Position numbers and translations under genes: made by a program. From the NCBI GenBank assembly GCA_000004695.1, contig CM000152.2:2880001-2944000 (forward strand): DNA of 64,000 nucleotides, given 5' to 3'. The stretch comes from Dictyostelium discoideum (lineage: Eukaryota). Position 1 is the stretch's first letter; each line of letters opens with the position of its first letter. This document shows, piece after piece, positions 11,601-64,000 of the stretch. Below the pieces are notes generated by a model. That model was not told the origin of the DNA. It searched no databases and was given only the letters and a program-made list of their open reading frames with translations.

Positions 11601-11892
11601 ATGTATAATAATAGTAATAGTAATAATAATAACGGTAGTAGAAAAAGATCAAGCCCACCATTATATATAAATAATAATAATAGTGGCAATTATATATCAC
11701 CACCCTCTCCATTATCGCCAAAACAAACCAATAATTTTCTTTTTAATAATGGTGGTTTTAATTCATTTGAAAATCCTCAACAACAATCTCCTCCACAACA
11801 ACAACAACTTTTATTTACATCACCAATACCAACTAGACCACAAAATCTATATCAATACATCGATGAAAATGAATTAAATACAGGTTATAATA

Positions 11893-11970
<78 letters not shown>

Positions 11971-43709: not shown

Positions 43710-45013
43710 TTATCTTGAATCTTTTAAATTTTCTAAAATTACTCTTTTTAAAGAATTAAATTTAGTTTCTAATTCTAAAGAGATTTGATATTTTGATTGA
43801 TTAACATTTTCAATAAAGAGTAATTGATGTTGTAATGTTATAGAATGAGCTAAAGATTTAATGATGGATAATTGTTGTTGTTGTTTAATTTCATGATGAT
43901 GAGTAAAGATTAATTCAATGTAAGCGTTAAAGTATTGAGGGAACATTTGAAGAGTATTGGATTTAATTTGATCCAATTTCTCAATGTAAAGAGAGACAGA
44001 TTTTAGAATGATCGATACAAACTCTTGAACGATCAAAAGATGAGGTTTAAAAGCTTCGAAATGGGATTGAATCGAGCAATAGTCGTGATTAACTCTTGAT
44101 AGATTTTGATTTGAAATTTCGATTTTTCTAGAACAATTCTCTATCTGGTTGATTAGACACCACTGATCAAATTGTTTTTTCAATAGGATTTGCTCGTCGG
44201 TAGTTTCCAAAGTGACAGAATTCAAATGGTTCAATTGTTTCTCTAATTTGGTTTTCTCAGTTTCCAATTTATCAAATTCTTTCTTTGCTCTAAATAGCTT
44301 CTCTTCAGTTTCAGTCATTGATTTCTCTAATAGGTCAAACCACCATTTAAAGTATGACTGAATTTGTTGAGAATATAGCTGAATCAATGGTTGCACCTGT
44401 TTCCAATATTTTATTGACTCATCAACGTATAGAAGATCGGTTATTACAGATTCGACATTTTCATTCAACTGTTTTGCTTTATCAATGAATTGTGAGCATT
44501 GATTGATCTCTTTGATCATTACCAATTGTTGTTGTATGAATTCATCAAGATTCGATCTAACTGTACGTACCAACTTTATAGTGGTCAATAGTCTAATGAA
44601 TAAATCATTATTTGTATCCAATTCAAATATTGATGGTAAAACTTTCATAATACTACCAATTGGTAAAACTGGTGATAAAATTAATGCTAAAACTTTTTCA
44701 TACAATTTAGTTGTTTCAATTAAATTACCTGATGAATTTGAAAATGTTAATGCTGGGCTTGAATTTGAACCAATTAAACTTGGTGAGTTATTTGAATTAT
44801 TATTATTACTACTACTGCCACTATTTGCAAATTGTCTTTGAATTGACTGAATTGCACCACCACTTGTATTTAATAAATTATTAACACTTGAATCTCTTGA
44901 ACTTGGTGTACCACCACTAAATGATAATGAATATCCTGATCTATTTACAATTGTTGGTGATAAATTTGGTGAACTTGATAATGATGACCCACTACTACTA
45001 CTACTATTACTAC

Positions 45014-45065
<52 letters not shown>

Positions 45066-45801
45066 GTTTATATTATTTCCGTCTTTGCTTGAACTTAAAA
45101 AATTTGGTGAAAAAAGTGCGTTTGATGATAAAGATAATGAATTTGCTATATTTCCAGTTGACAAACTGTTACGCTGTGATGGTGATGGTGATGATGTTAA
45201 CGATGATGGTGTTGATTGTTGTTGTTGTGATGATGATAATGTTGATGGTGATAATGTTGTCGGTGATATATTAGTATTATTAGTATTATTATTATTACTA
45301 TTATTTATATTATTATTATTATTATTATTTTCTTTTTGATTATTTTGATTATTTTGATTATTTTTAATTTCTAATGTACATTCAACTATAGAGTTTATAA
45401 TTGTTTTTATAATTTCAGGTTTAAATAAAGAATTATTTGCAGTTTCACGTTCTTTTGTAACTCTTATCCAATGATCTATTATATAAGGTATACGAGAACC
45501 ACGTAAACATTGTTGAGCTTGATCAATGATGATTAAATCCTCCATTAATGGATACTGTTTCATTATTGTTGGTAATAATCTAATCATATCTTCAACGATT
45601 TCATCATTACCAATTTCACCACGTGTTAAAATATTTGGTGCAAATACTATCGCTAAATTCTTTTCACCCATTGCATTCTGTTTTTGATATTTAATTTGAC
45701 TATATGAAATCTCTTGTAAAAATGATAATAAATAAATTAACAATTGTCTATTTTCTAATGGTAATTTTTCAATCCATTCTAAAATTAAATTTTCAATTTT
45801 A

Positions 45802-45833
<32 letters not shown>

Positions 45834-47311
45834 TGGATTTGAAGAATTTGAATTTGAATTTATATTATTATTATGAAAATTTAAAATATCTTTTTCATAT
45901 TTTTGACATAATTGTGTTGTTAATAATGGTTCTGGTAAAGTTTTTAAATAACGTTTTATTATATCAGCAGCATCGTATGGTTCATATTTATTAATTGGGA
46001 AAATTTCATTTGAATCTAATCTTTTTTCTAAATCATCACATCTTGCCATTGAACCTGATAGCCTAAATAAACCTTCAGCTTTTGAATTTTCACCACGTAA
46101 ATAATTTACAAGTTTTCTAAAAAATAATGGTGCAGGTGATCCAATATTATCCTTTCTTCTCATGCTTTCTGCAATATCCACTCTAAAATTACCAGGTTCA
46201 ATAATCGCACCACTACTTTTACCCCATGAATAAACTGATAAAACATTTCTACCTTCTAATTGATAAACATTATTAAATTGTAATGTTGATTTCTTTGTAG
46301 TAGTGGTGGTGTTGGTGGTGGGGGTAGTAGTACCACTACTTGAATTTATATTTGGTGAACTATTAACATCCAATTTATGTGATAATTGATTATCTTCACT
46401 ATTACCCCAACTAAATATTTCACCCTTTTCTGATAAAACTAAAATGTGACTTGTTGAAGCTGAAATTTGTTTGATTTTATTTGGAAAATTAATGAATTTA
46501 TCATCACCTATTCTACAAACTTGTTCGTTTGAACCCCAAACACAAACATTGCCAACACCTGATCTAGCGGCGATATAGTTTTTGGTGCATGATAACTCTA
46601 CGATATCACGACCTAGAAATGGTTTGACGGGTATAGAGATGATTTCATCGCTATTGTTTGAACAAATTTGTCTACTCTTATTATAACCCCACACAAACAC
46701 TTCATTACCTTCGACAATGGCTGCTGTAAACTCTTCGCCGCAACAGACTGATATCGCTTTACTGCCCAATGTGACACGACGTGGCGCATTGGTGATCGAG
46801 TCTCCCACGACCCCCAACTGGCCCTTACGGTTGGTGCCCCATGTATAAACGGATCGTTTCTCTGGTGTAGTAGGCGAGTCGGCTACAACCGCACAATGAT
46901 TAATACCAATCGATACACATGTCACACCTTTCAATAGGTCGACCTTGGTTGGCGACTCTGTGCATTTGCCACCCTCAATTAGTGTGCCCCATACATAGAG
47001 TAGCCCATTCTCCATTATTGCCGCTGAGAAATTACCACCACATGATATGGATTTCACTCTTTGATTTGGTATCACTTGAATTTTAATGGGTTTGTCAATA
47101 CTTGTTATCGCTTTATTACTAGATAATTGATGATGTCTATTATCTCCCCATCCATATAATTCTCCTGTCTCTGTTAATGCTAAACTATGGTTATATCCAT
47201 TATCCATAAAACATATATTTGGTATTAAGGGATTAAATGTTGGTTTACCACTAAATTTATCACCCCAACAATATAATACACCTTGTGGTAATGAAATATT
47301 TTCTTGAGATT
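43710..47311 (-). CDS. RCC1-repeat + RhoGAP domain protein, main exon
   Basis: Six or more RCC1-type blades (YGWGDNRHHQLS..., VYTWGTNRKGQLG..., VFVWGYNKSRQ..., EIFSWGNSEDNQLS). The RhoGAP core is AEGLFRLSGSMARCDDL...DAADIIKRYLKTLPEPLL...NLAIVFAPNI. Coiled-coil C-terminus. Stop at 43710. Confidence 0.7.
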
Positions 47312-47465
47312 CTAAAATAAAATTAAATAATAAAATAAATATTCAAATTTGGTGTGTGATGGGGTGGAGTGTGGGGTGGAGAATGTGGGGGTAAATAAAA
47401 AAAAATATATTAATAAAAATTTTAAAATATATATATTTTTTAATATTTAAATATAAAATTCTTAC

Positions 47466-47475
47466 TTTTTGTCAT
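47466..47475 (-). CDS. RCC1-repeat + RhoGAP protein, 10-nt first coding exon (ATG ACA AAA A)
   Basis: ATG followed by a GTAAGA donor. The 154-bp intron ends at TTTTAG 47313-47312, and the frame joins SQENISLPQGVLYCWGDKFSG upstream of the track ORF start. Confidence 0.4.
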
Positions 47476-48069
47476 TATTGTTTTTTTATTTTATTTATTT
47501 ATTTATTTATTTATAAAACTATAATGTTAAATTCAAAAAAAAAAAAAAAAAAAAGATAAACTAATGTTATTTAAAATAATTTTTTTTTTTTTTTTTTTTC
47601 TTTTTTTTTTTGTTTTTTTGTTTTTTTTTTTTTTTTTTTTTGTTTTGATGGTTTATATTTTGTTTTTTATTTTTTATTGATTTAAGTAAAACATAATTTG
47701 TTTACAAAAGTTGATTTAGGTTTGTTGGGTTTTTTTGTTTTTTGGAATTGAAAAAAAAAAAAAAAAAAAAAAAAAAATAATAAAAAAAAAAAATATTGAA
47801 AAAAAAAAAAAAAAAAATTGAAAAAAATTAAAATAAAAAAAAAAAAAAAAAAAAAAAAGATAACGATAGTTTGTTATTTGATGGGATACTACAAAATAAT
47901 ATGAGGTGATTTTATTTGTGCAACCAAAATAATAAATTGTATGAAAATAAAAAAATATAAATATAAATATAATAATAATATTATTATTTTAATAATTCGA
48001 TCCAATATCAAGAAATTAAGAGTGTATCATACATAATTAAAAGCCTGTAAATAATGGTGTGGTGGTTGG

Positions 48070-48105
<36 letters not shown>

Positions 48106-48607
48106 AAAATAAATAATTAGTGTTGGTGTTTGATTTCGTTGATAAAAATAGATTAATTAATTAATTTAAAAATAGAATTAATAAAAAAAAAAATAAAAAA
48201 AATAAAATAAAAAAAATAAAAAAAAAAAATCAGAAACTGGGGAAAGTTTATTAAAACATAACTTTGATATTAAAGTAAAATATAATTATAACTGATCTAC
48301 ACCCCACTTTTATTTTTTTTTAATATTTTTTAATATTTTTTTTTTTTTGTCTTTTTTTCTAGATATTATTATCATAAAATCATATCACAATAAATAATTT
48401 TCACCCAAAAGAAAAAAAAAAAAAAAAAAATAACAACAAGCAACAATTTATTCAAAAAGCAAGAATCACCTATATTACCCTTCCTAATAGTTTTATAGAT
48501 AGTTTTAATAAAATTGTTTACCAGATTTTTTTTAGAGAATATTAAAAAATAAAATTTTTTTTTTTTATTTTATTTTTTTTTATATCTTTTAATTTAATTT
48601 TTTTATT

Positions 48608-48745
48608 TTATATTATATTATTTTATATTATATTATATTATATTATATTATATTATATTATATTATATTATATTATATTATATTATATTATATTATATTA
48701 TATTATATTATATTATATTATATTATATTATATTATATTATATTG
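48608..48745. repeat. (TATTA)n pentanucleotide microsatellite, about 27 units
   Basis: Perfect tandem tattatattatatta... Confidence 0.9.
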
Positions 48746-48842
48746 TATTTTTTTTTATTTATTTTTTTTTTTCCAAATAACCTACTTTTTTTTATTTATT
48801 TTTTTTTTCCAGATTATCTACTTTTTTTTTTTTTTTTAAAAG

Positions 48843-49100
48843 TCAACATCAATTTATCAAAAATACCTTTAGAATAATCAACAACACAATCTCCAATTGT
48901 TGGCTAACATTTTTCTAATTGACACAATAGCCCAAAACCAAGAATTCCTATTGTAATTTTAGGTAGACATTTCAATGGAATATTAGTACAACCAATTTCT
49001 TTACCGCATTTATCAATTGTACATAAATTATTATAATCACAGGTAATATCACCAATACACTGATTTAAATTTTTAATATTATCATCATTAATTCCTAAAT
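48843..49100 (-). pseudogene. decayed fragment of a PA14/CTDC-family C-terminal exon (in-frame stop inside the ICQLEKC-like motif)
   Basis: Reverse strand reads NLCTIDKCGKEIGCTNIPLKCLPKITIGILGFGLLCQLEKC(stop)PTIGDCVVDYS. This matches the 3-prime exon of the intact copies. Confidence 0.5.
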
Positions 49101-49297
49101 TAATATTATAAATTTATTTAATAATTTTTTTATTTTTTTTATTTTTTTTAATTTTAAAAAATTCACTATATCCATAATTTGATTCTTCACTATATTTTTT
49201 TTTTTAAAAAAATTATTAAAACTATTATAAAAAATAACTTCATTTTAAAAATAAGATTAATAAAACAATTAATATACTTAATAATAATAAAAAAAAA

Positions 49298-49355
<58 letters not shown>

Positions 49356-49659
49356 TCCCATATTAATTTTACTCCACCCCAAATAATTGTCAATAATGTT
49401 TATATTACTTTGACCCACCAAACCCACCACCAACAACACCACCACCACTCAAAATTACAACATAGTTTTTGTTATTTGGTTATTTTATTGGAATATTAAA
49501 TTTCCGTTTATTTTAATTTTCAAAATCAATTTTTTTTTTTTTTTTTTCAAATAATTAAAATTAAATAGATTAATAAAAAATAAAAATAATGTAAGTTCAC
49601 AATTTTTTTATTAATTATTACTATCATTTATTTTTTATTTTTATTTTTTTAGATTTTAT

Positions 49660-49840
49660 TTGTAATGATATACTAAATGATCAAGAAAACCACCAGAGTA
49701 ATCAATAACACAATCTCCACTAGTTGGCTCACATTTTTCTAATTGACAAATAAATCCAAGATCTAATAAACCAATAGTTTTCTTTGGAGGACATTTTCTA
49801 GTTGAAAGAAAAAAAAGTTTACACTTTCCAGTGGATTAAA
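49660..49840 (-). pseudogene. truncated duplicate of the 3-prime end of the 52544-53256 exon (CPPKKTIGLLDLGFICQLEKCEPTSGDCVIDYSGGFLDHLV)
   Basis: Near-identical to 52560-52720, but lacks the upstream exons. It is part of a duplicated block that also carries the fragment at 48843-49100. Confidence 0.5.
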
Positions 49841-50051
49841 TTGTAAAGCACTAAAATGTGTAAATGATAATAAAAATAAAAATAAAAATAATAATAAAAA
49901 TAAAAATAAAAATAAAAATAAAAATAATAATAATAATAATAATTAATAAAAAAAATGAAAGTTCAAAATTTTTTGGAATTGTATATTTTTTTAAAAAATA
50001 TTTAATTATTATTATTTATTGTGAAGTAAATTAATTTGAAAAAAATATTTT

Positions 50052-50722
50052 TTAGCAAAGTAAAATTTCTAAAAGTCCTTTTAAAAAATCAGGAACGCAA
50101 TTACCAGAATATGGTTCACATTTTTCATTTTGACAAATAATACCAATTCCTAATAAATCAATAGCTTTCTTTGGTGGACATTTTATTTCTGGTAATGGTT
50201 CACATTTTCCATTTTTAACGTTACAAGAATTTGGTTTACATTTATTTGAATTATCACATTCTATCGGGGTATGTGTACAATAATTGTTAATTTTTGAACC
50301 TGCTGGAGTTTTATTTGATGGGAATGCGCAAGCATCAATTGTACATGGATTATTATCATTACAATCTATTTCAGGTACACATTGTGGTGGTGTTGTTGGT
50401 GGTTCTGTTGGTGGTTTTGTTGGTGGTTCTGTTGGTGGTCTTTTTGGTGGTTCTGTTGGTGGTTCTGTTGGTGATTCTGTTGGTGGTCTTGTTGGTGGTT
50501 CTGTTGGTGGTCTTGTTGGTGGTTCTGTTGGTGGTGGTCTTGTTGGTGGTTCTGTTGGTGGTGGTCTTGTTGGTGGTTCTGTTGGTGGTGGCCTTGTTGG
50601 TGGTCTTGTTGGTGGTCTTGTTGGTGGTCTTGTTGGTGGTTTTGTTGGTGGTTTTGTTGGTGGTTTTGTTGGTGGTCTTGTTGGTGGTGGACAAACATCA
50701 TCATTAACCCCTGGAATATTAT
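50052..50722 (-). CDS. psi-like copy 1, exon 4 (Pro/Thr-rich PPT(R/K)PPTEPP linker, then Dicty_CTDC Cys-rich repeats NPCTIDAC)
   Basis: AG acceptor at 50724-50723. Stop at 50052. Confidence 0.65.
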
Positions 50723-50814
50723 CTTTTTTTTTTTTTTTTTTCAAATTAATCAATATTTTAAAATTTTAAATTTTCATAACAGAAATTCCATTTTTGGAAA
50801 AAAATAATACATAC

Positions 50815-51093
50815 TGCATTGAAATACAAATGGTGTATCAAATTGGAGATAAACAAATGGTTTATTTTGATCAAATCTTTGGCACATAAAGAAATCAAAT
50901 GGATAAGTTTTGCCAACTTCAAGATTTAAGTTTTTATGATTAACTGCGGAATCAGGATTACTAGTACCTGCAAATTCAAATGCCAATTTACCATCGATAA
51001 ATACTGATAAATCACCTCCTGCATACAATGAAAAGAAATCAGATGTTTTTTTACTTACTTGATATTTGAATTTATAATGTCCTTCAATGCACC
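50815..51093 (-). CDS. psi-like copy 1, exon 3 (PA14 core: YAGGDLSVFIDGKLAFEFAG...GKTYPFDFFMCQRFDQNKPFVYLQF)
   Basis: AG acceptor at 51095-51094. GTATGT donor at 50814. Confidence 0.65.
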
Positions 51094-51177
51094 CTATAAT
51101 TATTAATATAAAAAAAAAAAAAAAAAAAAATATTAATAATTAATATTTTTTAAATATTATTTTTGATAAAAGCTTAC

Positions 51178-51395
51178 AATATCTATTCTCACCAGATACA
51201 CCTTCATTCCAACCTTTTCCATTAATTGGAGTAAATGGTTTTAGAGTAACAGCATATTTAACTTTTCCATTTGAATAATGGACTGGATTAAAAGTGAATG
51301 TATTGATTACAGTTTTTGATATTCCAGGTTTTCCCATAAAAGATTGATCATATTCTTTTTGGTTGGAAATAAAATTAAATTTTCTATTTCCACAA
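51178..51395 (-). CDS. psi-like copy 1, exon 2 (PA14 N-terminal half)
   Basis: AG acceptor at 51397-51396. GTAAGC donor at 51177. Confidence 0.6.
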
Positions 51396-51469
51396 CTATC
51401 AAATTAAAAAAAAAAAAAAAATTAAAAATTAACAATAATTATTATTATTATTAAATAATTATTACATAC

Positions 51470-51684
51470 CAATATTCAGGTTTATGAGTTTTTGGATTTA
51501 ATAGTTTTTTAACTAAACCAGTTGATTTGATTGATTTATCATTTGAATATTTAGTATAGTTGATATTAAATCCAGGTTGCGATGGCAAAAAGTCATAAAC
51601 TTTATATGGAACATTGAATTTTTGGGAAAAGGACGAACATATAAATAAACTTAAAAATAAAATTAAAATTAAAACTTTTTTCAT
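51470..51684 (-). CDS. PA14 + Dicty_CTDC secreted protein (psi / prespore-cell-inducing-factor-like), copy 1, exon 1 (signal peptide)
   Basis: ATG at 51684. MKKVLILILFLSLFICSSFS is a signal peptide. GTATGT donor at 51469, phase 2. Confidence 0.65.
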
Positions 51685-52543
51685 TTTTTTAGGTTTAATT
51701 TGTAGGAAAGTGAAAAAAAAAATTTTCTTTTTTTTTTTTTTTTTTTTTATTCCCTTTTTTTTTTTTTTTTTTTTAATTACATTTTTTTTTTTTTTTTTTT
51801 TTGGTAGTGTTTACAAATACTAAACTTTTCTTCTATTCTTTTTAGATTTAAACCCAGTTAAAATATATTTTTTAAATTGGAAAAAAAATTTAGTATTCTC
51901 ATTATTATAATTATAATTGTATGAATAAATATTATAACTGTTATCAACTAATAATAGGTTAGATTTTTTTTTTTTTTTTTTTCTTAAAAAAAAAAAAGTA
52001 TTAATAGTTAATTTGAGAATAATTAATAAACAAACATAATTATTACTAAAAACTAAAAAAACTTCCTGATTTCAAATTAAAAAAACTCTTAAAATCTGTT
52101 TATTCAAGATTCTTTTATTAAAAAATTAATTTTTTAATTTTATTTTTTTAATAAGTCCAAAACCAAGAATTCCTATTTTAATTTAAGATAGACATTTCAA
52201 TGGAATATTAGTACAACCAATTTCTTTATCACATTTATCAATTGTACATAAATTATTTCATCACAAGTAATATCATAAATACACATTAAATTTTTAATAT
52301 TATCATTATTTACTAAATAATATTAAAAAATTAAAACTGTTATAAAAAATAAAATTAATAAAACAATTAATGCAGTGTATAGGAAAATAATAATAATAAT
52401 AATATCACAAAATATTTTTTTACTCCACCCCCCAAATAATTGCCAATAATATTTATTTTTCTTTAACCCACCACCACTCAAAATTACAACATAATTTTTG
52501 TATATTATTTCTAACAAACAAGTTTTTTTTTTTTTTTTAGGTT

Positions 52544-53256
52544 TTATTTGTCATGACATACTAAATGATCAAGAAAACCACCAGAGTAATCAATAACACA
52601 ATCTCCACTAGTCGGCTCACATTTTTCTAATTGACAAATAAATCCAAGACCTAATAAACCAATAGTTTTCTTTGGAGGACACTTTCTAGTTGAAAAGAGT
52701 TTACACTTTCCAGTGGATTTATCACATCCAACAGATTTACATAAATCTGGATCATTACATAAAACTGGTGAATGTGTACAACCAATTTCTATATCACATT
52801 TATCAATTGTACAAGGATTAAAATCATCACATGAAATTGGTTCAGTTTTACAAATTCCATCACTTTTATCACATCCTAATGATTTAGTACATTTATTATC
52901 GGGTGGGCAAATAGTATAGTTATTAGTACACCCAATATTTGGATAACATTTATCAATTGTACCTAGATTACCATCATCACATGAAATTGGTTCAGTTTTA
53001 CAAATTCCATCAATTTGATCACATCCTAATGATTTAAAACATTTATTTTTATTATCAACATCATTATTAGAACATTTAATTGGAGTATGTGTACAATATT
53101 CAGTAACATTTGCATTTTTTGGCAATTTAGATAAATCAGATGGACAAGAATCAATTGTACATAAATTATTATCATTACAAGTTGTCATATTGTTACAATC
53201 TGGTAATAGTGGTGGTGGTGGTGGACAAACATCATCATTAACTCCTGGAATATTAT
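52544..53256 (-). CDS. psi-like copy 2, exon 4 (short PPPPPLLP linker, seven Dicty_CTDC-type Cys repeats)
   Basis: AG acceptor at 53258-53257. Continuous ORF to the stop at 52544. Confidence 0.55.
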
Positions 53257-53356
53257 CTTTTTTTTTTTTATAAAAAAAAAAAAAACAATTAAAATTAAAA
53301 TAAAAAAATAAAATAAATATTTTTTTAAAAATAATATTTATAATAATAATACATAC

Positions 53357-53638
53357 TACATTCAAAAACAAATGGTGTTTTAAAAAGAGCATATTTATAT
53401 GGTTTATATTCATCAAATCTTTGACATGAAAAGAAATCAAATGTATATGTTTCACCATTTGTTAAATTTAAACATTTATGATCTATACTTATTTCAGGAT
53501 CACTTATACCTGAAAATTCCAATACCAATTTACCATCAATAAATACTGAATATTCACCACCAATATAAAAAGAAAAATAATCAGATGTTTTTTTCTTTTT
53601 TATATTATATTTGAATTTATAATGACCTTCCATACACC
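53357..53638 (-). CDS. psi-like copy 2, exon 3 (PA14 core YIGGEYSVFIDGKLVLEFSG...)
   Basis: AG acceptor at 53640-53639. GTATGT donor at 53356. Confidence 0.55.
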
Positions 53639-53721
53639 CTTTTTAAGTATGTAAAAAATAAAAATAAATAAATAATATAATTTAAAAATGATATATTGTT
53701 AAAATTAATATCATTACTTAC

Positions 53722-53939
53722 AAAATAGGTTATTTTCTTGTTCACCTTCATTCCAACCCTTTCCATTAATCGGGTAAAATGGATTAATAAAGATTTGATA
53801 AAGAACAATTCCGTTTTCATAGTAAGTGGGATAAAATTTAAATTGGTCAATAATATTCTTTGTTGAATCTTCATTTGAAATGAATGATTGATCATAAACA
53901 TTTTGATTATCAATAAATTTAAATTTACAATCTTCACAA
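53722..53939 (-). CDS. psi-like copy 2, exon 2
   Basis: AG acceptor at 53941-53940. Same 218-nt length and phase as copy 1 exon 2. GTAAGT donor at 53721. Confidence 0.55.
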
Positions 53940-54022
53940 CTAAAACTATTTAAATAATTTAGTGTTTTTTATAAAATAATAAAAATAAAATAAATAAAAA
54001 ATTAATACACAAACACACTTAC

Positions 54023-54232
54023 CAATATTCAGGTTTATTAAAAAAAGGATTTAAATTTTGTTTAACTAAACCATAATTTCCTATTGAATTTGATGAACAT
54101 TGAGTATAGTTAATATTAAATCCAGGTTGAGAAGATTTTAAAATCATATACCTTATATGGAGCAAAAAAAGATGTTTCACAATAACAATTTTTTAATATA
54201 GTTAAAATTACTACAATTAAACTGATTTTCAT
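54023..54232 (-). pseudogene. psi-like copy 2, exon 1 with an apparent +1 frameshift between the signal peptide and the PA14 start
   Basis: ATG at 54232 gives MKISLIVVILTILKNCYCETSFFAPYKVYDF. The frame that joins the TAT TG|GTAAGT donor is +1 relative to it (one extra base near 54140 compared with copy 1). Confidence 0.45.
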
Positions 54233-54620
54233 TTTAATTAATATTTTAAAATAATATAATAATTAATTTACTTAAATAATTATTTTATCCATTTATTTTT
54301 TTTTCTTTTTTTTTTTTTTTTTAATAAAATTAAGAAAGAATAAATTGTAAAAGATTAATTTATTGTAATTTTAATCATCATATTTAATTTTTTAAAAATA
54401 CTTAATTATGTAATATTTAATAAAAAGAAGTTGTAATTTTTTTAAAATCGGAAATATACCACACTAAAATGTGTGAATAATAATAATTATAATTAATTTT
54501 ATAAAATGAAAGTTCACAATTTTTCCAATTGTTTGTTTTTTCTATTTTAAAAAACTATTAAATTATTATTTTTTATTATTGGTTGTAAAGTAAATGATTA
54601 AATAAAAAAATAAATTAATT

Positions 54621-55922
54621 TCAACAAAGTAATTTATCTAAAAGTCCTTTAGAAGAATCAGGAATGCAATTACCAGAAGATGGTTCACACATTTCAGGCT
54701 GACAACCAACACCAATTCCTAATAAATCAATTGTTTTCTTTGGTGGACATTTTATTTCTGGTAATTGTTCGCATTTTCCATTTTTAACATTACAAGAATT
54801 TGGTTTACATTTATTTGAATTATCGCATTCTATCAGAGTATGTGTACAATAACTCTCAAAACTTGAACCTACAGGAATTTGAAATGATGGGGTGGACAGG
54901 TATCAATTGTACATAGATTATTACCATTACAATCTTTTTCAGGTACGCATTGTGGTGGACAAACATCATCATTAACCCCTGGAATATTATCTTTTTTTTT
55001 TTATTTTTTTTCAAATTAATCAATATTTTATAATTTTTCTTAGTATTTTTTTTTGAAAAAAATAATAATACTTACTGCATTGAAATACAAATGGTGTATC
55101 AAATTGGAGATAAACAAATGGTTTATTTTGATCAAATCTTTGGCACATAAAGAAATCAAATGGATAGGTTTTGCCAACTTCAAGATTTAAGTTTTTATGA
55201 TTTACTGCGGAATCAGGATTACCAGTACCTGCAAATTCAAATGCCAATTTACCATCGATAAATGCTGATATATCACCTCCTGCACACAATGAAAAGAAAT
55301 AAGAAGTTTTTTTACTCACTTGATATTTGAATTTATAATGTCCTTCAATGCACCCTATAATTATTAATATAAAAAAAAAAAAAAATAAAAAAAAAAAAAA
55401 AATATTAATAATTAATATTTTTTAAATATTATTTTTGATAAAAGCTTACAATATCTATTCTCACCAGATACACCTTCATTCCAACGTTTTCCTTTAATTG
55501 GAGTAAATGGTTTTAGAGTAACAACATATTTAACTTTTCCATTTGAATAATGGACTGGATTAAAAGTGAATGTATTGATTACATCTTTTGATAATCCAGG
55601 AGTTCTAATAAACGATTGATCATATTTTTCTTCATTGGAAATAAAATTAAATTTTTCATTTGCACAACTATTAACATTGGAAAAAAAATTAATAATTAAA
55701 TAATTATTACATACCAATATTCAGGTTTATGAGTGTTTGGATTTAATAATTTTTTAACTAAACCAGTTGATTTGATTGATTTATCATTTGAGTATTTAGT
55801 ATAGTTGATATTAAATCCAGGTTGCGATGGTAAAAGTCATAAACTTTATATGGAACATAGAATTTTTGGGAAAAGCACGAACCTATAAATAAACTTAAAA
55901 ATATAAATAAATTTTTTTTCAT
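54621..55922 (-). pseudogene. psi-like copy 3, pseudogene (-1 frameshift in exon 1, premature TAG in the first Cys repeat, deletion of the whole Pro/Thr linker)
   Basis: Exon 1 reads GACTTTTACCATCGC against copy 1 GACTTTTTGCCATCGC. The Cys-rich exon reads CTIDTCPPHHFKFL(stop). The linker-to-Cys junction is cattgtggtgg|acaaacatc with no PPT repeats. Confidence 0.6.
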
Positions 55923-56199
55923 TTTTTTAGTTTTTGTTTGATTTTTTAGGAAATTTAAATTGATTCTTTTTTTTTTATTTTTTTTTTTAAGATTTTTTTT
56001 TTTTTTATTTTTTTTTTTATAATTTTTTTTTTTTACTTTTTTTTATTTTAAAAAAAAACAACCCAAATACTAGACAGTTTAGATTTATATCCAGTTAAAA
56101 ATTATTTTTAATATTTGAAAAATATTTTAGTATTGTCATTATTATAATTATTATTTTAAATTGGGAATAAATTTTTAATATTGTTATTAATGAGATTGG

Positions 56200-56233
<34 letters not shown>

Positions 56234-57405
56234 AATATTTAATAATAATTAGATTTAGAATTATAAATAAAAAAAATAATTACTAAAAATAAATTAAGAA
56301 AAAAAATAAATAAATTAATAAAACTATTTTTATCAAATTCTCAATTTTTTGAAACATTTGGATGAATTTTAAAATAAAAAAAAAAAAAAACACTGAAATC
56401 AAAATTTTTTTTTTTCTGTTAGGCCCGTAATTAGTTCACTATTAAAATCTGTTTACCCAAGATTTTTTATTTTGAAATTATTTTTTAAAAAAAAAAAAAA
56501 AAGAAAAAAAAAAAAAAATTAAAGTAAAAAAGTGTGAGTGATGTTAAAATAAACACACACACACATTAACTCACAAAAACAACACACCCCATCTAAAAAT
56601 AAATTTTTTGAAATTAATAATAATTTATTTTTATTTTATTTTTAATTATTATTATTATTATTATTTTTTTTTTTTTTTTTTTTAAGTGTTGTATAAAACA
56701 AAATTTTATTTTATAATTTTTCAAAAAATTAATTTACAATTATAATTTTATACTTGGTTGTAAAAAAAAAAATTACATTCTCACATATACTCACTCACAC
56801 AACACCTAAATAAAATAATTAACTTTATCCCATCATATTCGAAATTATTATCTCTCTTTCCTTCAAACTACACACCCTCTGTTTTTTTTATTTAATTTAT
56901 TTTAATTTTATTTTATTTTATTTAATTTATTTTATTTTATTTTATTTTTTCATTCAATTAAAATAATTTTCAATCTATTAGAGTTCAAATAATTTTATTT
57001 TTTAATTAATAAAACTATTCATAATTTTTTTTTTTTTTTTTTTTTTTTATGCTATTTAAATATTAAAATTTCAATTTTTTTAATAATATAAATATAGACA
57101 AATACCACTCACATTTGATTAAAAATTAAAAAAATAAAAATAATATATTAGATAGGTTTAAATAATCATTCTCATAATAAATTTCATTTTTTTTAAAAAA
57201 TTATAAATCAATTTAATTATTTTAAATTATTTAAATCATAAAAAAAAAAAAATAAAAAAAAAAATATATTATTTATTTATTTATTTTTTCATTTATTTAT
57301 TTATTTATTCATTTCCCTCTTTTAAACAATTTATTTATAAAAACTATATTAAAATTATATTAAATTAAATTTTTAATAAAAAAAAAAAAAAAAAAGAAAT
57401 AAAAA

Positions 57406-57444
57406 ATGAAAATTGGTTTTAATGTATTTAAAAAATCACAAAAG
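57406..57444 (+). CDS. small hypothetical protein, exon 1 (MKIGFNVFKKSQK)
   Basis: ATG at 57406. GTAAAA donor at 57445, phase 0. Confidence 0.4.
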
Positions 57445-57582
57445 GTAAAATTAAAAAAAAAAAAATTTATTTGAATTAAAAATTATTATAAAAAAAAAAA
57501 AAAAATAAAAAAAAAAAAAAATTTAAAATTTAAAAATTAATTAATTTTTTAAAAAAATAATAATAAAATTAAAAACCTATAG

Positions 57583-57942
57583 AGATCTGATCAAGCTCAT
57601 CTTTGTGCATTATCAGAGAGTAGATTTAAAGTTGATCAATTTCTAAATTCAAATACATTTTCAAAAGGTAAAACATTACAACCAAGAATATTAGCAATTT
57701 GTGAAGATTCAATTAAAATTATAGCAGGTGATGAATCTGATATTATTGAAGAAATTGGTTGGTTACAAATTCAACAATTCAATCTTAAAGATAGTTGGAC
57801 AGAATGGGAAATTATTTTAAAAGATAAAAGAAAGTTCTTTTTCAAAAGTGATCGTTGTTTTGATATTCACATGGCTACTGATCATATTTTAGATGGTTTA
57901 ATTTGTTTAAATAAAACAAATGATTTTAAAAATATTGAATAA
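57583..57942 (+). CDS. small hypothetical protein, exon 2
   Basis: AG acceptor at 57581-57582. Clean 120-codon frame (RSDQAHLCALSESRFKVDQF...) ending in TAA at 57942. No family recognised. Confidence 0.4.
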   Translation, partial: RSDQAHLCALSESRFKVDQFLNSNTFSKGKTLQPRILAICEDSIKIIAGDESDIIEEIGWLQIQQFNLKDSWTEWEIILKDKRKFFFKSDRCFDIHMATDHILDGLICLNKTNDFKNIE

Positions 57943-58221
57943 TATAAATAATAATTATTAAAAAAAAAAAAAAATCAAACCCAAATGTATATAGAAAGAA
58001 ACAAACAAAAAAATATTGTAAATAACCAAATCCAAAAAAAAAACAAACTTTTATTTTATATTTTTTTTTTTATTGTAAATCCAATATAAAGAAAAAAAAA
58101 AAAAAAAAAAAAAAAAAATTATTTGAATAAAAATAAAATAAAAAACATATTTATTTATAAAAAATTAATTTAAAAAATAACTTTTTTTTTTTTTTTCAAT
58201 AATTATAAATTATTATTATTT

Positions 58222-59231
58222 TTATTGTATAACTTTATAATAACCATTTTTACTTGATTTTTTCATTATTATATAAATGATTAAACCCCCAACTAAGAAA
58301 CCAAAGGCGCAACCACCAACGGTGATACCAATCCAAGCACCCAATGTGAGTGGGACAGGTTTTGGAGTTGATGGAGCATCAATACCAATAGATTGTGGTA
58401 AATCATTGAATGATTTATTCTTTAAGAATCTAGTGATCATATCGAATGAAGTTGAAGGCATATTCATTGGATACATATGACTACCACCTAATGCTAAAAC
58501 AAAGGTTAAATTTGCAGCTGTTTTACCATAACCACCAGATTGAAGTGAACCATCAGTACCAACTGATGTCCATGTGAAACGTGGTGCATCTGACCATTCT
58601 TGAGTGTAATCCCACTCAATTTGATTTAAATATTCAGTAGTACCAACATGGTTACAAATTACATCGAATTGACCATTATAAATTAAAACTCTAATATTTG
58701 ATAACAATTCTGGGAATAAATATAATGAACTTTCATCTTGATTTGTAAGTAACCCATTTACAGTATCATTACACTCATTCCATTGATGTGGTGTCACTGT
58801 TGCATGAATTGCACTTCTAACATCATCACGATTCAAATAAACAAATTCTTGATTGATACCTGGTAATGGCCAGTTGTTACCTGCTGTTGGATCGTTTAAT
58901 CTATAATCGTACATATTGACTTGAGAAGTATTACTTGAACCGGAATCATCCAAAAGTGTATTAAAAACATTTGCACATTCATCAGAGTTGTAATTACCTT
59001 GTGAGAGTTGTTCTTGACAAAGATTATTAAGATTTTCATAATTGTTATATTGTCTTTGACCAATGATACCAGTTGCATAATATCCAAATTCACGATATGA
59101 ATTAATTTGAGTTGTTGGATGAGTATAACCATTACCAATTGCAACACCTTGAAGATTAATTTTAATTGAATCTTTTGATAAATTTTCATTCATATTTAAA
59201 ATATAACTTGCCATATGTGGAATATAATGTC
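58222..59231 (-). CDS. serine carboxypeptidase, exon 3 (GESYAG catalytic Ser, C-terminal TM helix plus short basic tail; Kex1-like topology)
   Basis: AG acceptor at 59233-59232 completes G|ESYAGHYIP. Contains LALGGSHMYP (catalytic His region). TM segment LGAWIGITVGGCAFGFLVGGLIIYIIM. Stop at 58222. Confidence 0.8.
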
Positions 59232-59284
59232 CTGCATAACTTTCTATTTATTTTTAAAATTTTAATAAATATTAATATTTTAAT

Positions 59285-59326
<42 letters not shown>

Positions 59327-59331
59327 CATAC

Positions 59332-59485
59332 CACCAGAAATGAAAAATGGTAAAGTTGAATAATTTGAAAAAATTTGGAAAAATTCTTGAATAAATTGAT
59401 AAAAGTTTTGATTAATTTCTAAATCATTTGTAACTAAACCATCATTATCACTAACGAATGAAAGACCTGTTCCAAATGGTTGATC
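59332..59485 (-). CDS. serine carboxypeptidase, exon 2
   Basis: AG acceptor at 59487-59486. DQPFGTGLSFVS...PFFISG. GTATGT donor at 59331, phase 1. Confidence 0.75.
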
Positions 59486-59573
59486 CTATTTATTTATTTA
59501 AATTTTTATTAATATTTTTAAAATAATAAAAAAGTGTTTAGAAAAAAAAAAAAAAAAAAAAAAAATTTCTTAC

Positions 59574-60089
59574 AATATATAACATATTTGCAGAATTATG
59601 CCAACTCCATGGATTAATATAAAATTTATCAGAATTATCAGAATCACCAATAAATCTGAGTGGACCAGTTTCAATGAAAACTGAATCCATTGAACTACAA
59701 CCTGGACCACCATTTAACCAAACTAATAATGGTGCATCCATTGGATTAATAACGGTTTCATTGGCTGGGAAGAACCAAAAGAATAAATTACCATCACTAG
59801 TTTCATTGGTTGTTAATAAACCTGAAAATGATGTTAAAATACCATTATCAAGACCTGGTAAATCGGTTACAAGGAAATCATTTGGAGTTTGTTTAACATT
59901 TTTTAATGATTTTAAATATTTATTATCATAATATTCTTTTGTATATGTTTTTGGTGAAGGATTTGGTTTTCTATCGGTTTGTTTTCTTTTACTAAAATTT
60001 ATTTTAGATTCAACAATACCACCATTATTATTTAATAATAATAATTGAATAATTAAAATAATTGATAATAAAATTATTTTAATATTCAT
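59574..60089 (-). CDS. serine carboxypeptidase (S10 family), exon 1 (signal peptide, WLNGGPGCSS oxyanion motif)
   Basis: ATG at 60089. LLVWLNGGPGCSSMDSVFIETGP. GTAAGA donor at 59573. Confidence 0.8.
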
Positions 60090-60646
60090 TTTTTTAGATT
60101 TTTTTTTTTTTTTTTTTTTTGTTTGTAAACTGTTTTAAAAAAAAAAAATAAAAAAAAAAAAAACGCTGTTTAAATAACAAAAAATGATTTTTTTTTTTAT
60201 TTTTTTTAAAAAAAAAAAATTAAAAAAAAGATTTTTTTTATTCGCTGGAAATTTCTTTTGCAATCTTAAAAAATAATTTATTTTTTTTTTTTTTCTGTAA
60301 ACAGATTCTGAAGTGTGACAGAATTCTTTTTAACTTTTTTTTTTTTTTTTACAACCAAATAATTTTTAATTTTTATTTTTGCAGATAAAAAAGTATTTTA
60401 AAATTTAATTTAGAAAAAAAAAAATAAAAAATAAAAAAAAAAAAATAAAAAAAAAAATAAGAATTCTATCCACCTTCAGAATCTTCTTTATTTAATAAAA
60501 TTTAGTATTTTATTTTATAAAAAAATGTTTTTTTTTTTTCTTAAACAAAATAATAATCATAAAAAAAACCATTTTTTTTTTTTGAATTAGATCTGTTTTT
60601 AAAAAAACCGCCAATTTTGGTTGTTTTTGAAAAAAAATATAAAAAA

Positions 60647-60717
60647 GCGTATGTGGTCTAGTGGTATGATGCATCCCTGCCACGGATGCGAACTGGGTTC
60701 GATTCCCAGCATACGCA
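60647..60717 (+). tRNA. tRNA-Gly (anticodon GCC)
   Basis: 71-nt cloverleaf. Acceptor GCGTATG/CATACGC with discriminator A. Anticodon stem CATCC/GGATG with loop CTGCCAC. T arm CTGGG-TTCGATT-CCCAG. Internal A and B boxes. T6 run immediately downstream. Confidence 0.85.
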
Positions 60718-60720
60718 CAA

Positions 60721-60726
60721 TTTTTT
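60721..60726 (+). terminator. RNA polymerase III oligo(T) terminator for the tRNA
   Basis: TTTTTT starting 4 nt after the discriminator base. Confidence 0.5.
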
Positions 60727-60749
60727 AAGGTACCCCCAATAAAATCACA

Positions 60750-60759
60750 GGTTCGATTC
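60750..60759 (+). promoter_or_regulatory. external B box (ex-B) downstream of the tRNA gene
   Basis: GGTTCGATTC repeats the T-loop B-box consensus 33 bp after the tRNA 3-prime end, with no accompanying acceptor or anticodon arms. Dictyostelium tRNA genes characteristically carry such an ex-B box. Confidence 0.5.
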
Positions 60760-62905
60760 TTTTTTCCTCTACACCGATTTAGAAAAAAAAAAAAAGATTC
60801 TTTTTTCCTCTAATTAATCATGATCAACTGGTAGTTTTTAAAATTAATTAATTCTTTTGCTTTTTTAATTAATAATGATTAGTATATTTGATTCTTTTTT
60901 ATTGAATCACCAAAGTTTGATGAATTATAAGTTGAATTAATAAAAATTTATGGATAAATTTCTTTTTTACCTCCAAATGATTATGTGGTAAAAAACTCTT
61001 ATTATCAACACTTCTTAACAAATGCTAACCATTTTAGATTATATTGAAAAGGCAAAAAATTTAAAATTAACTCTTTTGAAAGATCCAAGTTATCTCCTTA
61101 AATAAATAATAAAACAATGAAAATTAACTTGAAAATCTTATTGTATTCCAGGAGCTAGGGTAATCATATAGATTGAATTATTTTGAATATTATTAAAATT
61201 ATGATTATTATGCAAGGTTCCAGTTATTGGTGTACCATTATGTGATAAAGTATTGTATTTGTTAAAATCACCTACAGTTAATTGTTGTGATCCAAATGAA
61301 ATAATTGATATTTGATCGACTGTACTAATAATATGCTGAAATACAACTAACTTTAAAATTGCCACTTGTTGATACATCTCTATTATAAATTTGAATTAAA
61401 ATTACTATATAAAATAATGGTATTTCAAAGTAATGAATACATTTTTGAAATGATTGATCATTTGTTTTTGATTTAAAATTTACTTCATGTATTAATAATT
61501 ATCATTGGAGTTAATTGAAGTTGTCTTAATTTACTTAATGAACAATCTGGTTGTTGGCATGAATTTGCCTTATCAATAATAACCAATCCATTTAATAAAT
61601 ATGAAAAATCCGTGAATGTACCTTTTTTTAACATCAACATGCTTCTCCAATACAAATCCATTATAATCAACAAAAAGTTGCATATCCTAAACATAAAAAA
61701 AAAAAAAAAATTTAATATTAAATTTAATATTTAAATTTTTCTGTTGGAATTTTTAAAATTATAATAATACATTTTTAATGAAATTTAATTGATTTTCTAT
61801 TTTTCCAAAATTTGAAATATTGACAAATATATTTCCATCAAATTTAATGAGTTGAAGTTGTTGAATCCCATTTTTTAATCTTTTTCAACTCTTTAGTATA
61901 TGGTGCAAAATCATTGTTTCCCTTTTTGATTAATGTCCAAAGCTAGCCATTTTTTTTGGCTCTTCAAATCCAATAGATAATATCATTATTATTATTATTT
62001 TAGATTTGAAAAAATGTTAAAATATATAAAAATATAAAAATATTATGTGTACGCAAAAAATTAAACTCTTATTTATTGTGATTGAATATGATTGATTTTC
62101 TTTCATATTTTAAAAACAATAATTGGACTATAAACGATAACTATTTTTTGATTGATAATAATCCATATCTTTAATATACTAAACATAGATGTAATATTAA
62201 TATTATTCGTTTTTTAAAAAAAAAATTGATAAAAGTTGGTGTGCAATAGAACAACTATTATATAATGTTGAATCTTGAATGAATAATGAAAAATAAATAA
62301 AAAAATTAATTAAAAAAAAAAGAAAAATTATATTAAAATAAAAATAAAAAAATTATCCCCTTTTTTTTTTTAAATATAAATAAACATATGTATTTTTTTT
62401 ATTTTTTTAAGCACTAATTTAATTTTTGGTGCTTTTTTTGAAATTGTTGTGATATACGATTTAATTTTAATTAATTTTTTTTTTTTTTTTGTTTGTGGAA
62501 TAATAAAATAAAAAAAAAAATTGATTTTAAAATTCTATTACTTATATAAAATAGCTATCACCATACAAAAAAAAAAACTAGAAATGGAATTGAATTGAAG
62601 TACATCCTTTTTAATTTTTGATTCAATTTTTTAGATTTTAAAACTTCAATATATTAATATGATATATAAGTAATTATTTTTTTTAAGATATTTCCTTGTC
62701 ATTCTTTGATTTAATAAAAAATAATTTCTAATAATAAGAATTACAAAAAACAAACAAAAATATCAAAACTTAAATATCAAAAGACTGTGTTTAAATAAAA
62801 AAAGAAAACTAATTATTTGAGATTATAGAGATTAAATTAAACAATGGTCACAAATTATTTAAATTTTTAAATTCAATAAATATGTTCTTTTATTTTTTAC
62901 TTTTT

Positions 62906-62939
<34 letters not shown>

Positions 62940-62955
62940 TTCCAGATTAGAATAT

Positions 62956-63500
62956 CTAATCATCATGATTTTGGTTATCATTTTCATCATTATTATTAAT
63001 ATTATTATTGTTGTTTTCACTATTATTATTATTATTATTGGTATTATTATCGTTATTATTATCATTATCACCATCACTGTTGTTATCAAAATTTGAATGA
63101 TTATTAATGTTCGAAGTACTGTTTTTAATAAAACTGCTATTATTTGAAGTTACAATATCAGATTCAAAATTAAAAGCACTAATATTGCATGCATTTTTAT
63201 TATTTGACATTAAAGAACGTTTGAAAATATCCAACAATGATTTTCTAAAAGAAGGCATTTTTAAGATGAAATTTGCTTCGTCAATGATTTGAAAATTTTC
63301 AGAAAAGAATCTAACAGCCTCATCCAACAAGAATGATGATTCATAAATTTCTGTTAATTTGAAAATACTATAAATATTATCGATACTATATTTCTTTATA
63401 ATTAAAGTTTCACAAATCATTTTTAATCTTGTAATCATAAATCTATTTGCCGCAATAAATAATTGAATATAATCTTCAAATCCTAATCCATTTGATTGTA

Positions 63501-63531
<31 letters not shown>

Positions 63532-63560
63532 GTTATTTCTATTATATTCTTCAATATTAA

Positions 63561-63639
<79 letters not shown>

Positions 63640-63987
63640 TATATTATCATTATCATTATTGCTAAATTGATTATTACTATTAATATTAATATTATTATTA
63701 TCACCATCATTCTCAATACCATTTGAATTTGTTAATGTGCTATCATTATTATTACTATTATTATTATTTATATTATTATTATTATTGTTGTTGGTATCAA
63801 AATTATTAGCATCAGAGCTGTTATTACTATAATTACTATTATTATTTTCGATATCTAAATTGTTTAAAGATAAAGATTCAATTTCACCAGTATATAAATA
63901 TTGCATAACTAATAAAAATGTTGAATGTGGTACAGATTCAATTTTAATTTCTGATTCTAAACTTTCTTTTAATGGTGTTTCAAACAT
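62956..63987 (-). CDS. BTB/POZ domain protein, partial (5-prime end lies beyond the window), with a very long poly-N insertion
   Basis: VPHSTFLLVMQYLYTGEI and LFIAANRFMITRLKMICETLI are the C-terminal half of a BTB fold, split by an N-rich insert. TTTTAG acceptor at 63993-63988 upstream of the first in-window ATG. Stop at 62956. Confidence 0.55.
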
Positions 63988-64000
63988 TGCCCTAAAATAA

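Follow-up and report, generated by a model that had tools for sequence, protein, structure and literature searches.

We analysed a 64-kb window of the Dictyostelium discoideum genome (assembly GCA_000004695.1, contig CM000152.2, positions 2,880,001 to 2,944,000 of the forward strand; coordinates below are those of the window), in which a tandem array of genes for PA14/Cys-rich proteins occupies the minus strand from 48.8 to 56.3 kb. The array consists of three four-exon paralogues, called copies 1, 2 and 3 here, and three exon relics. A tblastn search of the whole window gave no match to this family outside 48.8-56 kb. A preliminary description made from the sequence alone had proposed an intact copy, a second copy with a frameshift, a pseudogene with several lesions and orphan 3' fragments, and this picture holds in our gene models and self-comparison. 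Its coordinates, its 218-nucleotide exon, its exon of about 280 nucleotides and the TATTG at the end of exon 1 are likewise correct in the rebuilt minus-strand models. For comparison we used the syntenic locus from an independent D. discoideum assembly, GCA_054883475.1 (L001), and four syntenic loci from relatives (L002 to L005).

One intact gene

Copy 1 (A-type, element A1; 50052-51684, minus strand) is an intact gene, as had been claimed. Its exons lie at 51684-51470, 51395-51178, 51093-50815 and 50722-50052 (215, 218, 279 and 671 nucleotides), every intron is bounded by GT..AG, and splicing and translation give an uninterrupted frame of 460 residues. All four exons are identical in L001, including the 304-nucleotide minisatellite described below. 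A look-up of the exact 460-residue sequence in the protein collection found no entry.

The product starts MKKVLILILFLSLFICSSFSQ, and this N-terminal signal peptide is its sole hydrophobic segment; the protein is predicted to be secreted. After the signal peptide come a PA14-fold domain that spans about 227 residues and contains 6 Cys, a linker of 102 residues (P53 T24 R10 E9 K5 S1) and a C-terminal module of 110 residues with 14 Cys, which ends at a C-terminal Cys. The linker corresponds to a coding minisatellite in exon 4 (50385-50688, minus strand), which Tandem Repeats Finder resolves as 24.6 copies of a 12-nucleotide period, (PPT[R/K/E])n. The length of the linker region varies in the family, from 0 residues in copy 3 to about 26 in the L002 gene at the copy 3 position, about 45 in the L002 gene at the copy 1 position and 102 in copy 1.

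Two disabled paralogues

Copy 2 (B-type, B2; 52544-54232, minus strand) is a pseudogene or a truncated gene. Its four exons, at 54232-54023, 53939-53722, 53638-53357 and 53256-52544 (210, 218, 282 and 713 nucleotides), add up to a coding length that is not a multiple of 3, and alignment of exon 1 places the lesion at 54139-54136, where an inserted base has turned a run of three A into four. Because exon 1 is 209 nucleotides long in intact relatives, copy 2 carries a +1 frameshift and copy 3 a -1 frameshift. Exons 2-4 are open and their splice sites intact, and in its C-terminal region the protein would carry additional Dicty_CTDC repeats. The frameshift and the open exons had both been described before, but copy 2 is not otherwise pristine, because a conserved repeat Cys, found in all orthologues, has become Gly (GGT, 52963-52961).

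The copy 2 orthologues P0010, P0108 and P0110 are intact at the frameshift site, where they read YDFKSSQPGF. The public model P0109 (447 residues, also an old UniParc entry) begins copy 2 at an internal ATG, reads MILKSSQPGF... and is without a signal peptide; from ...CEDCKF... to the C-terminus it is identical to copy 2 of the window. We also considered an intron inside exon 1 that would bypass the frameshift (GTATATG...CAATAG), but on inspection it meets a stop and was rejected.

Copy 2 might nevertheless still function, either by starting at the internal ATG or by correction of the one-base insertion at the RNA or the ribosome within the T4A4 tract. In favor of this, public annotations do give copy 2 a 447-residue protein, its downstream exons and splice sites are in order, and the ratio of non-synonymous to synonymous substitution rates (dN/dS) against the intact L002 orthologue is 0.29, although this and all dN/dS values below are pairwise Nei-Gojobori estimates, window against L002, that mix intact and pseudogene branches and are confounded by conversion. 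However, with its roughly 40 Cys and its repeats of an extracellular type, such a product would require the signal peptide that the 447-residue protein lacks, the signal peptide is in frame in all copy 2 orthologues, and the Cys-to-Gly change occurs in this lineage only. We consider it unlikely that copy 2 functions, and the 447-residue, signal-less product is presumably non-functional.

Copy 3 (A-type, A3; 54621-55922, minus strand) is a pseudogene with two -1 frameshifts and no Pro/Thr linker. Its exons lie at 55922-55715, 55667-55450, 55354-55076 and 54990-54621 (208, 218, 279 and 370 nucleotides). The exon-1 lesion is a deletion that shortens a run of five T to four (55835-55832), so that the exon-1 lesions of copies 2 and 3 fall in neighboring homopolymers of the same T/A tract, at codons 30-32. 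A second -1 deletion lies in exon 4 near CCACCCC (54895-54889), and a single base inserted at any point of these positions brings back ...CTIDTCP.PSFQIPVGSSFESYCTHT... and leaves no stop. The preliminary description was right about the -1 frameshift at the shared spot and about the loss of the linker, but the premature stop that it listed is not a lesion of its own. The TAG appears because the second frameshift puts CCT GTA GGT out of frame; there is no independent nonsense mutation. Where relatives have the Pro/Thr linker, copy 3 reads ...DDVCPPQCVPEKDC..., a clean in-frame absence. A family-invariant Gly is replaced by Arg (CGT, 55486-55484), and intron 1 measures 47 nucleotides, against 74-117 in the other A-type copies. 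The public model P0005 (297 residues) represents copy 3 with invented introns that skip both frameshifts.

The lesions recur in an independent assembly

Positions 64000-44601 of the window align at 99.74% over 19.4 kb to CM142509.1 (6.43 Mb) of GCA_054883475.1. Over 56500-48500 the two assemblies are 99.86% identical and differ at two single-nucleotide polymorphisms (SNPs; 56063 and 55627) and in the lengths of four intergenic homopolymers. L001 carries every lesion of the array: copy 2 is frameshifted there once and copy 3 twice, and the relic has its stop. Because L001 differs from the window by SNPs and homopolymers and yet has all lesions, errors of a single assembly are very unlikely, which answers the question raised earlier of whether the indels of copies 2 and 3 are assembly artefacts.

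A broader version of this doubt is that the frameshifts are homopolymer errors of sequencing or assembly and that copies 1, 2 and 3 are all intact. Two of the three indels do lie in short T/A runs, in a genome of about 78% A+T in which many homopolymers vary in length between assemblies. However, the homopolymers in which L001 differs are long ones, not runs of 4-5 nucleotides, and the third indel, in exon 4 of copy 3, has a C-rich context. The internal-ATG start of the older UniParc model P0109 is what would be expected if the copy 2 frameshift were also present there. In addition, the indels are accompanied in both pseudogenes by the substitutions at conserved residues noted above (Cys to Gly in copy 2, invariant Gly to Arg in copy 3), and copy 3 lacks its entire linker besides. 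We regard this explanation as almost certainly wrong and treat the lesions as real.

Relics and duplication units

Self-comparison of the array region was used to delimit the duplication units. Copies 3 and 1, including about 380 base pairs (bp) upstream, match at 85% over 1.4 kb (56302-54952 against 52061-50684) and again past the linker at 82% (54958-54476 against 50390-49926). The upstream, or promoter, region of copy 1 (51685-52061, minus strand) was thus duplicated with the gene and is paralogous to that of copy 3 (55923-56302, minus strand). Copy 2 is only 67-69% identical to copy 1 or copy 3. Its 3' end and flank (52719-52154) recur downstream of copy 1 (49837-48929) at 74-89%, and within this match relic B1 is 88.75% identical to 52719-52490. 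Chance cannot account for such similarities, given that the 1.4 kb shared by copies 1 and 3 are 85% identical and the B blocks 88%.

Relic B1 (49660-49837, minus strand; 49832-49671 by tblastn) holds the 3'-terminal 55 or so codons of a copy-2-type gene, with its stop, and lies about 215 bp downstream from where copy 1 stops. Relic C1 (48843-49116, minus strand) comprises the whole of a short exon 4 from another member of the family, with an in-frame TAG at 48906-48904. It reads NLGINDDNIKN...CDYNNLCTIDKC...CQLEKC*PT..., with a start comparable to the exon-4 start NNIPGVNDDVC, and has one CTIDKC repeat followed by the C-terminal module. Relic C2 (52154-52333, minus strand), downstream of copy 2, is a degenerate short exon 4 with a frameshift and a TAA and is 87.8% identical to 49116-48929. 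The region 48843-49840 had been described as a duplicate of the copy 2 3' end and flank with a stop-bearing exon fragment. The duplication is borne out, but not as a single block, since three relics, B1, C1 and C2, can be told apart; they are the remains of at least two additional copies. Along the array the elements follow the order A3, B2, C2, A1, B1 (relic), C1 (relic).

Relatives retain traces of the same losses. At the B1 site L002 retains another part of the gene that was lost there, KNANVIDYCTHTP, and L003 has a 3' piece at 11668-11781. The L002 orthologue of C1 stops at the same place as C1 (CQL*KI*PT), which indicates that C1 was dead before the lineages split.

The relic downstream of copy 2 invites a different gene model. 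A perfect GTATGT donor at 52561-52556 overlaps the final codons of copy 2 (..HL|VCHDK*), and gene models in the ACTFIR and ACTFIW assemblies use the equivalent donor to join the C2-orthologous piece as a fifth exon (the C-termini of P0010 and P0110; compare L002 at about 11650-12277). We rejected a fifth exon for copy 2 and treat 52154-52333 as a relic because every lineage has kept the canonical ...HLVCHDK stop and because, in this genome, the piece downstream is interrupted by a frameshift and a stop.

A motif, AATCTTG(G/A)(G/A)TAAACAGATTTTAA, is found about 400-500 bp upstream of both A-type genes (about 56455-56430 and 52110-52085) and could mark the boundary of the duplication unit. A possible third copy past the last relic (about 48530-48505, with the look-alike TCTGGTAAACAATTTTA) aligned too weakly to be counted.

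Gene conversion and selection

We aligned four sequences, copies 1 and 3 from the window and from L002. Across 52024-51400, 41 informative sites group the sequences by position and 1 by genome, whereas across 51333-50709, 29 group them by genome and none by position. This mosaic, from 41:1 to 0:29, indicates conversion from exon 2 to intron 3 after the lineage split. The tract in copy 1 (50709-51333, minus strand) runs from exon 2 to the start of exon 4 and covers the PA14 core; the four-sequence alignment puts its partner in copy 3 at about 54977-55605 (minus strand). Intron 2 is identical at 84 of 84 positions between the two window copies, whereas the orthologues differ by about 24%. In L002, the two A-type copies differ at 1 of 279 sites in exon 3. 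The partners of gene conversion in the window's lineage were the intact copy 1 and the pseudogene copy 3.

Independent recent duplications of A-type genes in each lineage would also make copies 1 and 3 similar, with no conversion involved. Duplication is indeed ongoing, given that copy number varies among lineages and that L003 has a third A-type gene. However, whole-gene duplication is not expected to produce a mosaic with a sharp switch at about 51400-51333. Each copy is also nearer to its L002 positional orthologue than to the paralogue in the same genome when promoters, exon 1 and the C-terminal part of exon 4 are compared: copy 1 is at a distance of 0.075 from its L002 orthologue and 0.127 from copy 3 in exon 4, and of 0.076 and 0.275, respectively, in the upstream region. 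Over promoters, exon 1 and exon 4, divergence among the copies amounts to 13-27%. Separate duplications without conversion are therefore very improbable, and conversion remains our explanation of the mosaic.

The dN/dS estimates are 0.23 for the PA14 part of copy 1, 0.29 for all of copy 2 and 0.33 for all of copy 3. For the linker and C-terminal part of copy 1 the ratio is 1.7, a value from only 5 synonymous and 29 non-synonymous changes that is a lead and not a result. We dropped dN/dS as a demonstration that constraint on the pseudogenes has been relaxed, since pairwise values near 0.3 are uninformative without branch-specific estimates.

Syntenic loci in relatives

L002, from assembly GCA_054859385.1, which is labelled D. 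discoideum, has three intact genes with the canonical exon plan of 209, 218 and 279-282 nucleotides. The gene at the copy 3 position encodes 381 residues and has a short linker, the one at the copy 2 position encodes 470 residues by the canonical model and 499 as annotated, and the one at the copy 1 position encodes 403. Its flanks are only about 90% identical to the window (44000-64000), with 90.3% over 5.3 kb and 91.3% over 4.8 kb, in contrast to the 99.7% of L001, and L002 is probably a cryptic species or a deep lineage. In the flanks and in exon 4, the sequences of the window and L002 are orthologous by position.

In L003, from D. cf. discoideum, there are four called genes (A, B, A, A), a 3' relic of a B-type gene and a C relic. 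The order in L004, from the ACTFIW assembly, is A, B, C relic, A, C relic, with three called genes. L005, from D. citrinum, contains one B-type gene of 776 residues with numerous additional Cys repeats; before it lies an A-type remnant that is heavily decayed. The B-type gene (L005 8001-10639, P0009) encodes about nine tandem Cys repeats of about 51 residues (CTKSLGCD..DGKCKTE.ISCDDG..CTIDKCDPKIGC), and their expansion is a second type of repeat-number variation in the family. In D. dimigraforme, three A-type paralogues without a Pro/Thr linker (P0006, P0007 and P0008) are recorded on three different contigs, and there the family may be dispersed and not tandem.

The unlike contents of L002 to L005 indicate that gene number and integrity shift between very close lineages. 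The birth-and-death reading proposed earlier fits this comparison well, with lesions shared by the window and L001, three intact genes in L002, four called genes in L003 and one gene plus a remnant in D. citrinum. Some of the losses are older than the lineage split, and the frameshifts of copies 2 and 3 are confined to the window's lineage.

Protein domains

Searches for PA14 and Dicty_CTDC had been suggested on the basis of the preliminary description. Copy 2 alone, once its frame is repaired, passes the gathering threshold of Dicty_CTDC (PF00526, 27 bits) with 38.6 bits over 3 stretches; copy 1 scores 18.1, below it. P0009 and P0010 carry a precomputed PF00526 annotation. For PA14 (PF07691), single sequences stay below the Pfam gathering threshold, yet the family profile and the fold match PA14, and because the single-sequence scores are weak, the domain identity rests on profile and fold evidence. 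The N-terminal family profile matches PF07691 "fibro-slime" proteins with E values from 6e-16 to 1e-3, and a sequence match in the PDB to the PA14 domain of RsgI3 is weak (E 0.012). The structural comparison used an AlphaFold model of the orthologue P0001, whose N-terminal domain is 93% identical to that of copy 1. The model has blocks with a predicted local distance difference test (pLDDT) score of 80-95 across much of this domain, its fold is a PA14-type beta-sandwich, and the fold search returns PA14 structures.

Alignment with bacterial relatives shows that the motif GDDDxWVFIDGKLVIDLGG...ERH reads GGD/GGE.S.FIDGKL..EF.G...QRF here. The family lacks the adjacent Asp-Asp pair that precedes the (W)V(F)IDG strand and has GGD(L/I/V)S or GGEYS where fibro-slime proteins have GDDD.

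Setting of the array

In L001 the array is flanked on one side by a gene for a 132-residue protein, next to a serine carboxypeptidase (Peptidase_S10) gene, and on the other by a gene for a protein of about 1200 residues whose orthologue in relatives has RCC1 and RhoGAP domains. The arrays of the relatives sit between the same flanking genes. G+C content is about 20-25% throughout the window. Upstream of the array region there is a gene for tRNA-Gly (GCC; 60647-60718, plus strand), and two long microsatellites were identified: (TTATA)n, of about 29 copies, at 48603-48749 just past the relic block, and (TAA)n, of about 26 copies, at 49279-49355 within it. In the homopolymer run adjoining the latter, L001 is one base different, at 49299.

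A model for the history of the locus

Taken together, these observations very probably describe a lineage-specific tandem cluster of genes for secreted PA14 and Cys-rich proteins that evolves by duplication, conversion and loss. In the model that we propose, an ancestral unit made up of one A-type gene, one B-type gene and a short exon of C type would have been duplicated in tandem to give A3-B2-C2-A1-B1-C1. In this D. discoideum lineage A1 alone has stayed intact. Single-base slippage in the same exon-1 T/A homopolymer tract disabled B2 and A3 separately, A3 gained a second frameshift and lost its linker, B1 was mostly deleted, and both C relics are dead. Conversion continues to homogenise the PA14 core, from exon 2 to intron 3, between A1 and A3 despite the pseudogene state of A3; the promoters, exon 1 and the C-terminal exon evolve independently, and the linker, a 12-nucleotide coding minisatellite, changes length by slippage. 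The copy 1 protein would present a lectin-like PA14 head on a stiff Pro/Thr stalk, probably O-glycosylated, joined to a disulfide-knotted module. Judging by this architecture, it is probably an extracellular glycan-binding, matrix or signalling protein.

Several points weigh against this reading. The Pfam PA14 scores fall below the gathering threshold of 24 bits, at 16.7 for copy 1 and 20.5 for repaired copy 3, with no hit for repaired copy 2. Likewise, the TIGR02148 cut-off of 45 is not reached by copy 1 (39.5), P0010 (29.9), P0009 (32.0) or P0006 (41.8), with E values from 1e-10 to 6e-7. In the PA14 lectins Flo5 and Epa, the Asp-Asp pair binds Ca2+ and sugar. Since GDDD and ERH are replaced here, canonical Ca2+-dependent sugar binding may be altered or lost. 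The dN/dS of the pseudogenes, about 0.3, bears little trace of long neutral decay, so that either the lesions are recent or conversion masks the decay; taken by themselves, these rates may be compatible with residual function of copies 2 and 3. Finally, the ancestral [A][B][C] x 2 unit is a reconstruction from the order of the relics.

A more far-reaching possibility is that the dead copies (copy 3 and possibly the relics) act as sequence reservoirs that exchange the PA14 core with the expressed gene while the C-terminal module and linker diversify fast, which would make this a rapidly diversifying locus for the extracellular recognition of kin, prey or matrix. If so, the locus would be particular to the D. 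discoideum species complex. We think this quite unlikely. In our assessment, the locus is an ordinary case of birth-and-death in a young family specific to the species complex, with nothing mechanistically unexpected.

Its practical value lies in annotation correction and in a compact example of gene-family turnover. Public gene models mask both pseudogenes, P0005 by invented introns and P0109 by its internal ATG (L001 10001-11302 and 11776-13379), and because they do so, counts of D. discoideum PA14 and CTDC proteins are slightly inflated. The anchorless subfamily carries only the label "hypothetical protein". Within 8 kb, the array unites tandem duplication, an exon-1 frameshift hot spot, a coding minisatellite and a sharply bounded conversion tract between a gene and a pseudogene, and the syntenic arrays of close relatives, with four called genes, three called genes or a single gene, differ in content.

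Comparison with known systems

The domain combination had been assigned to the prespore-cell-inducing-factor (psi) family. We made an exhaustive profile search over 1.84 billion representatives, which returned the family itself and then amoebozoan, mainly dictyostelid, "PA14 domain-containing proteins" from D. purpureum, Tieghemostelium, Cavenderia ("extracellular matrix protein"), Heterostelium and Acytostelium. Among the matches of this search and the cluster names there was no named psi protein. Other searches aimed at named psi proteins led elsewhere: the full-length query drew mostly low-complexity Pro/Thr matches, the N-terminal profile got no further than bacterial fibro-slime proteins, and a broader profile yielded 4234 bacterial matches. 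The dictyostelid relatives combine a signal peptide and PA14 with a YDYCGVCxGDGxxCC junction and numerous CTxDxC repeats, and most also have a transmembrane segment (...AGVVVAGAVAL..F) and a GGKKGYDYWK...NPLY tail. Comparison by hhalign with ten dictyostelid psi-like PA14 proteins, none of them named psi, gave a probability of 100% and an E value of 5.5e-50 over 401 collinear columns, which cover PA14 and the first Cys repeats.

The psi family has been described as PA14-domain proteins, and psiA, psiF and psiN are grouped with the CTDC matrix and signal proteins (PMC12821622, PMC4931340, PMC6830349). The same sources count 21 PA14, 11 CTDC and 3 dual-domain proteins in D. discoideum, and a reservoir of matrix and signal proteins has been linked to dictyostelid multicellularity (PMC4931340); the family described here is part of it. 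Because the hhalign match is collinear over both domains and the literature places psi proteins among PA14 and CTDC proteins, the psi assignment is right at the level of the superfamily, as the fold and profiles also indicate. It fails for the membrane anchor and tail.

As in the psi-like proteins, a signal peptide directly precedes a fibro-slime-type PA14 domain, which is followed by CTxDxC Cys-rich repeats. The proteins of the family described here are shorter, most having 357-499 residues against roughly 480-980 in psi-like relatives, and they have neither the transmembrane segment nor the GGKKGYDYWK...NPLY tail, both of which are mostly present in relatives of about 700 residues; copy 1 is hydrophobic only at its signal peptide, and all A-type proteins end ...LLC. 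The junction is CNNIPGVNDDVC instead of YDYCGVCxGDGxxCC, and the core motif is GGD/E..FIDGKL..EF.G...CQRFD instead of GDDDVWVF..DLGG...CERHT. The Pro/Thr minisatellite linker of some members is a further difference. By these sequence features, the genes form a short, anchorless, motif-divergent branch of the psi-like superfamily, which we saw, within the searches run, only in D. discoideum, D. cf. discoideum, D. citrinum and D. dimigraforme. It is an unnamed new subfamily of a known PA14/Cys-rich kind, for which a psi-type role in signalling and adhesion may be envisaged. By description only, the products can be likened to DicA1 (Kolbinger 2005, cited in PMC6889452 as reference 37), reportedly a secreted, Cys-rich, PA14-containing Dictyostelium protein with no obvious enzymatic domain.

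Bacterial fibro-slime proteins (TIGR02148/PF07691; Myxococcota and others) resemble the family over an N-terminal domain of about 200 residues at 24-30% identity and share the blocks VP..(V)(Y/R)DF, GLVK, KP.Y, FDQ(S/W)(F/Y), (F)P(I)(D/N)G.GW, F.Y, FIDGKL and Y.(F/L)D.F. Unlike them, the Dictyostelium proteins stay below the TIGR02148 cut-off, have DDD and ERH replaced and are fused to eukaryote-specific Cys-rich repeats.

The fungal PA14 adhesins have no sequence relationship to the family that is detectable beyond the fold, and they differ from it in their GPI (glycosylphosphatidylinositol) or cell-wall anchor; here there is no such anchor, the C-terminus is Cys-rich and the Asp-Asp pair has become Gly-Asp or Gly-Glu. 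The overall design is nevertheless alike. Flo1/Flo5, Epa1/Epa6 and Cea1 also place an N-terminal PA14 head before a Thr/Pro- or Ser/Thr-rich spacer of variable length that is encoded by tandem repeats, and the Flo and Epa families, as does the family described here, include pseudogenes and recombine between paralogues.

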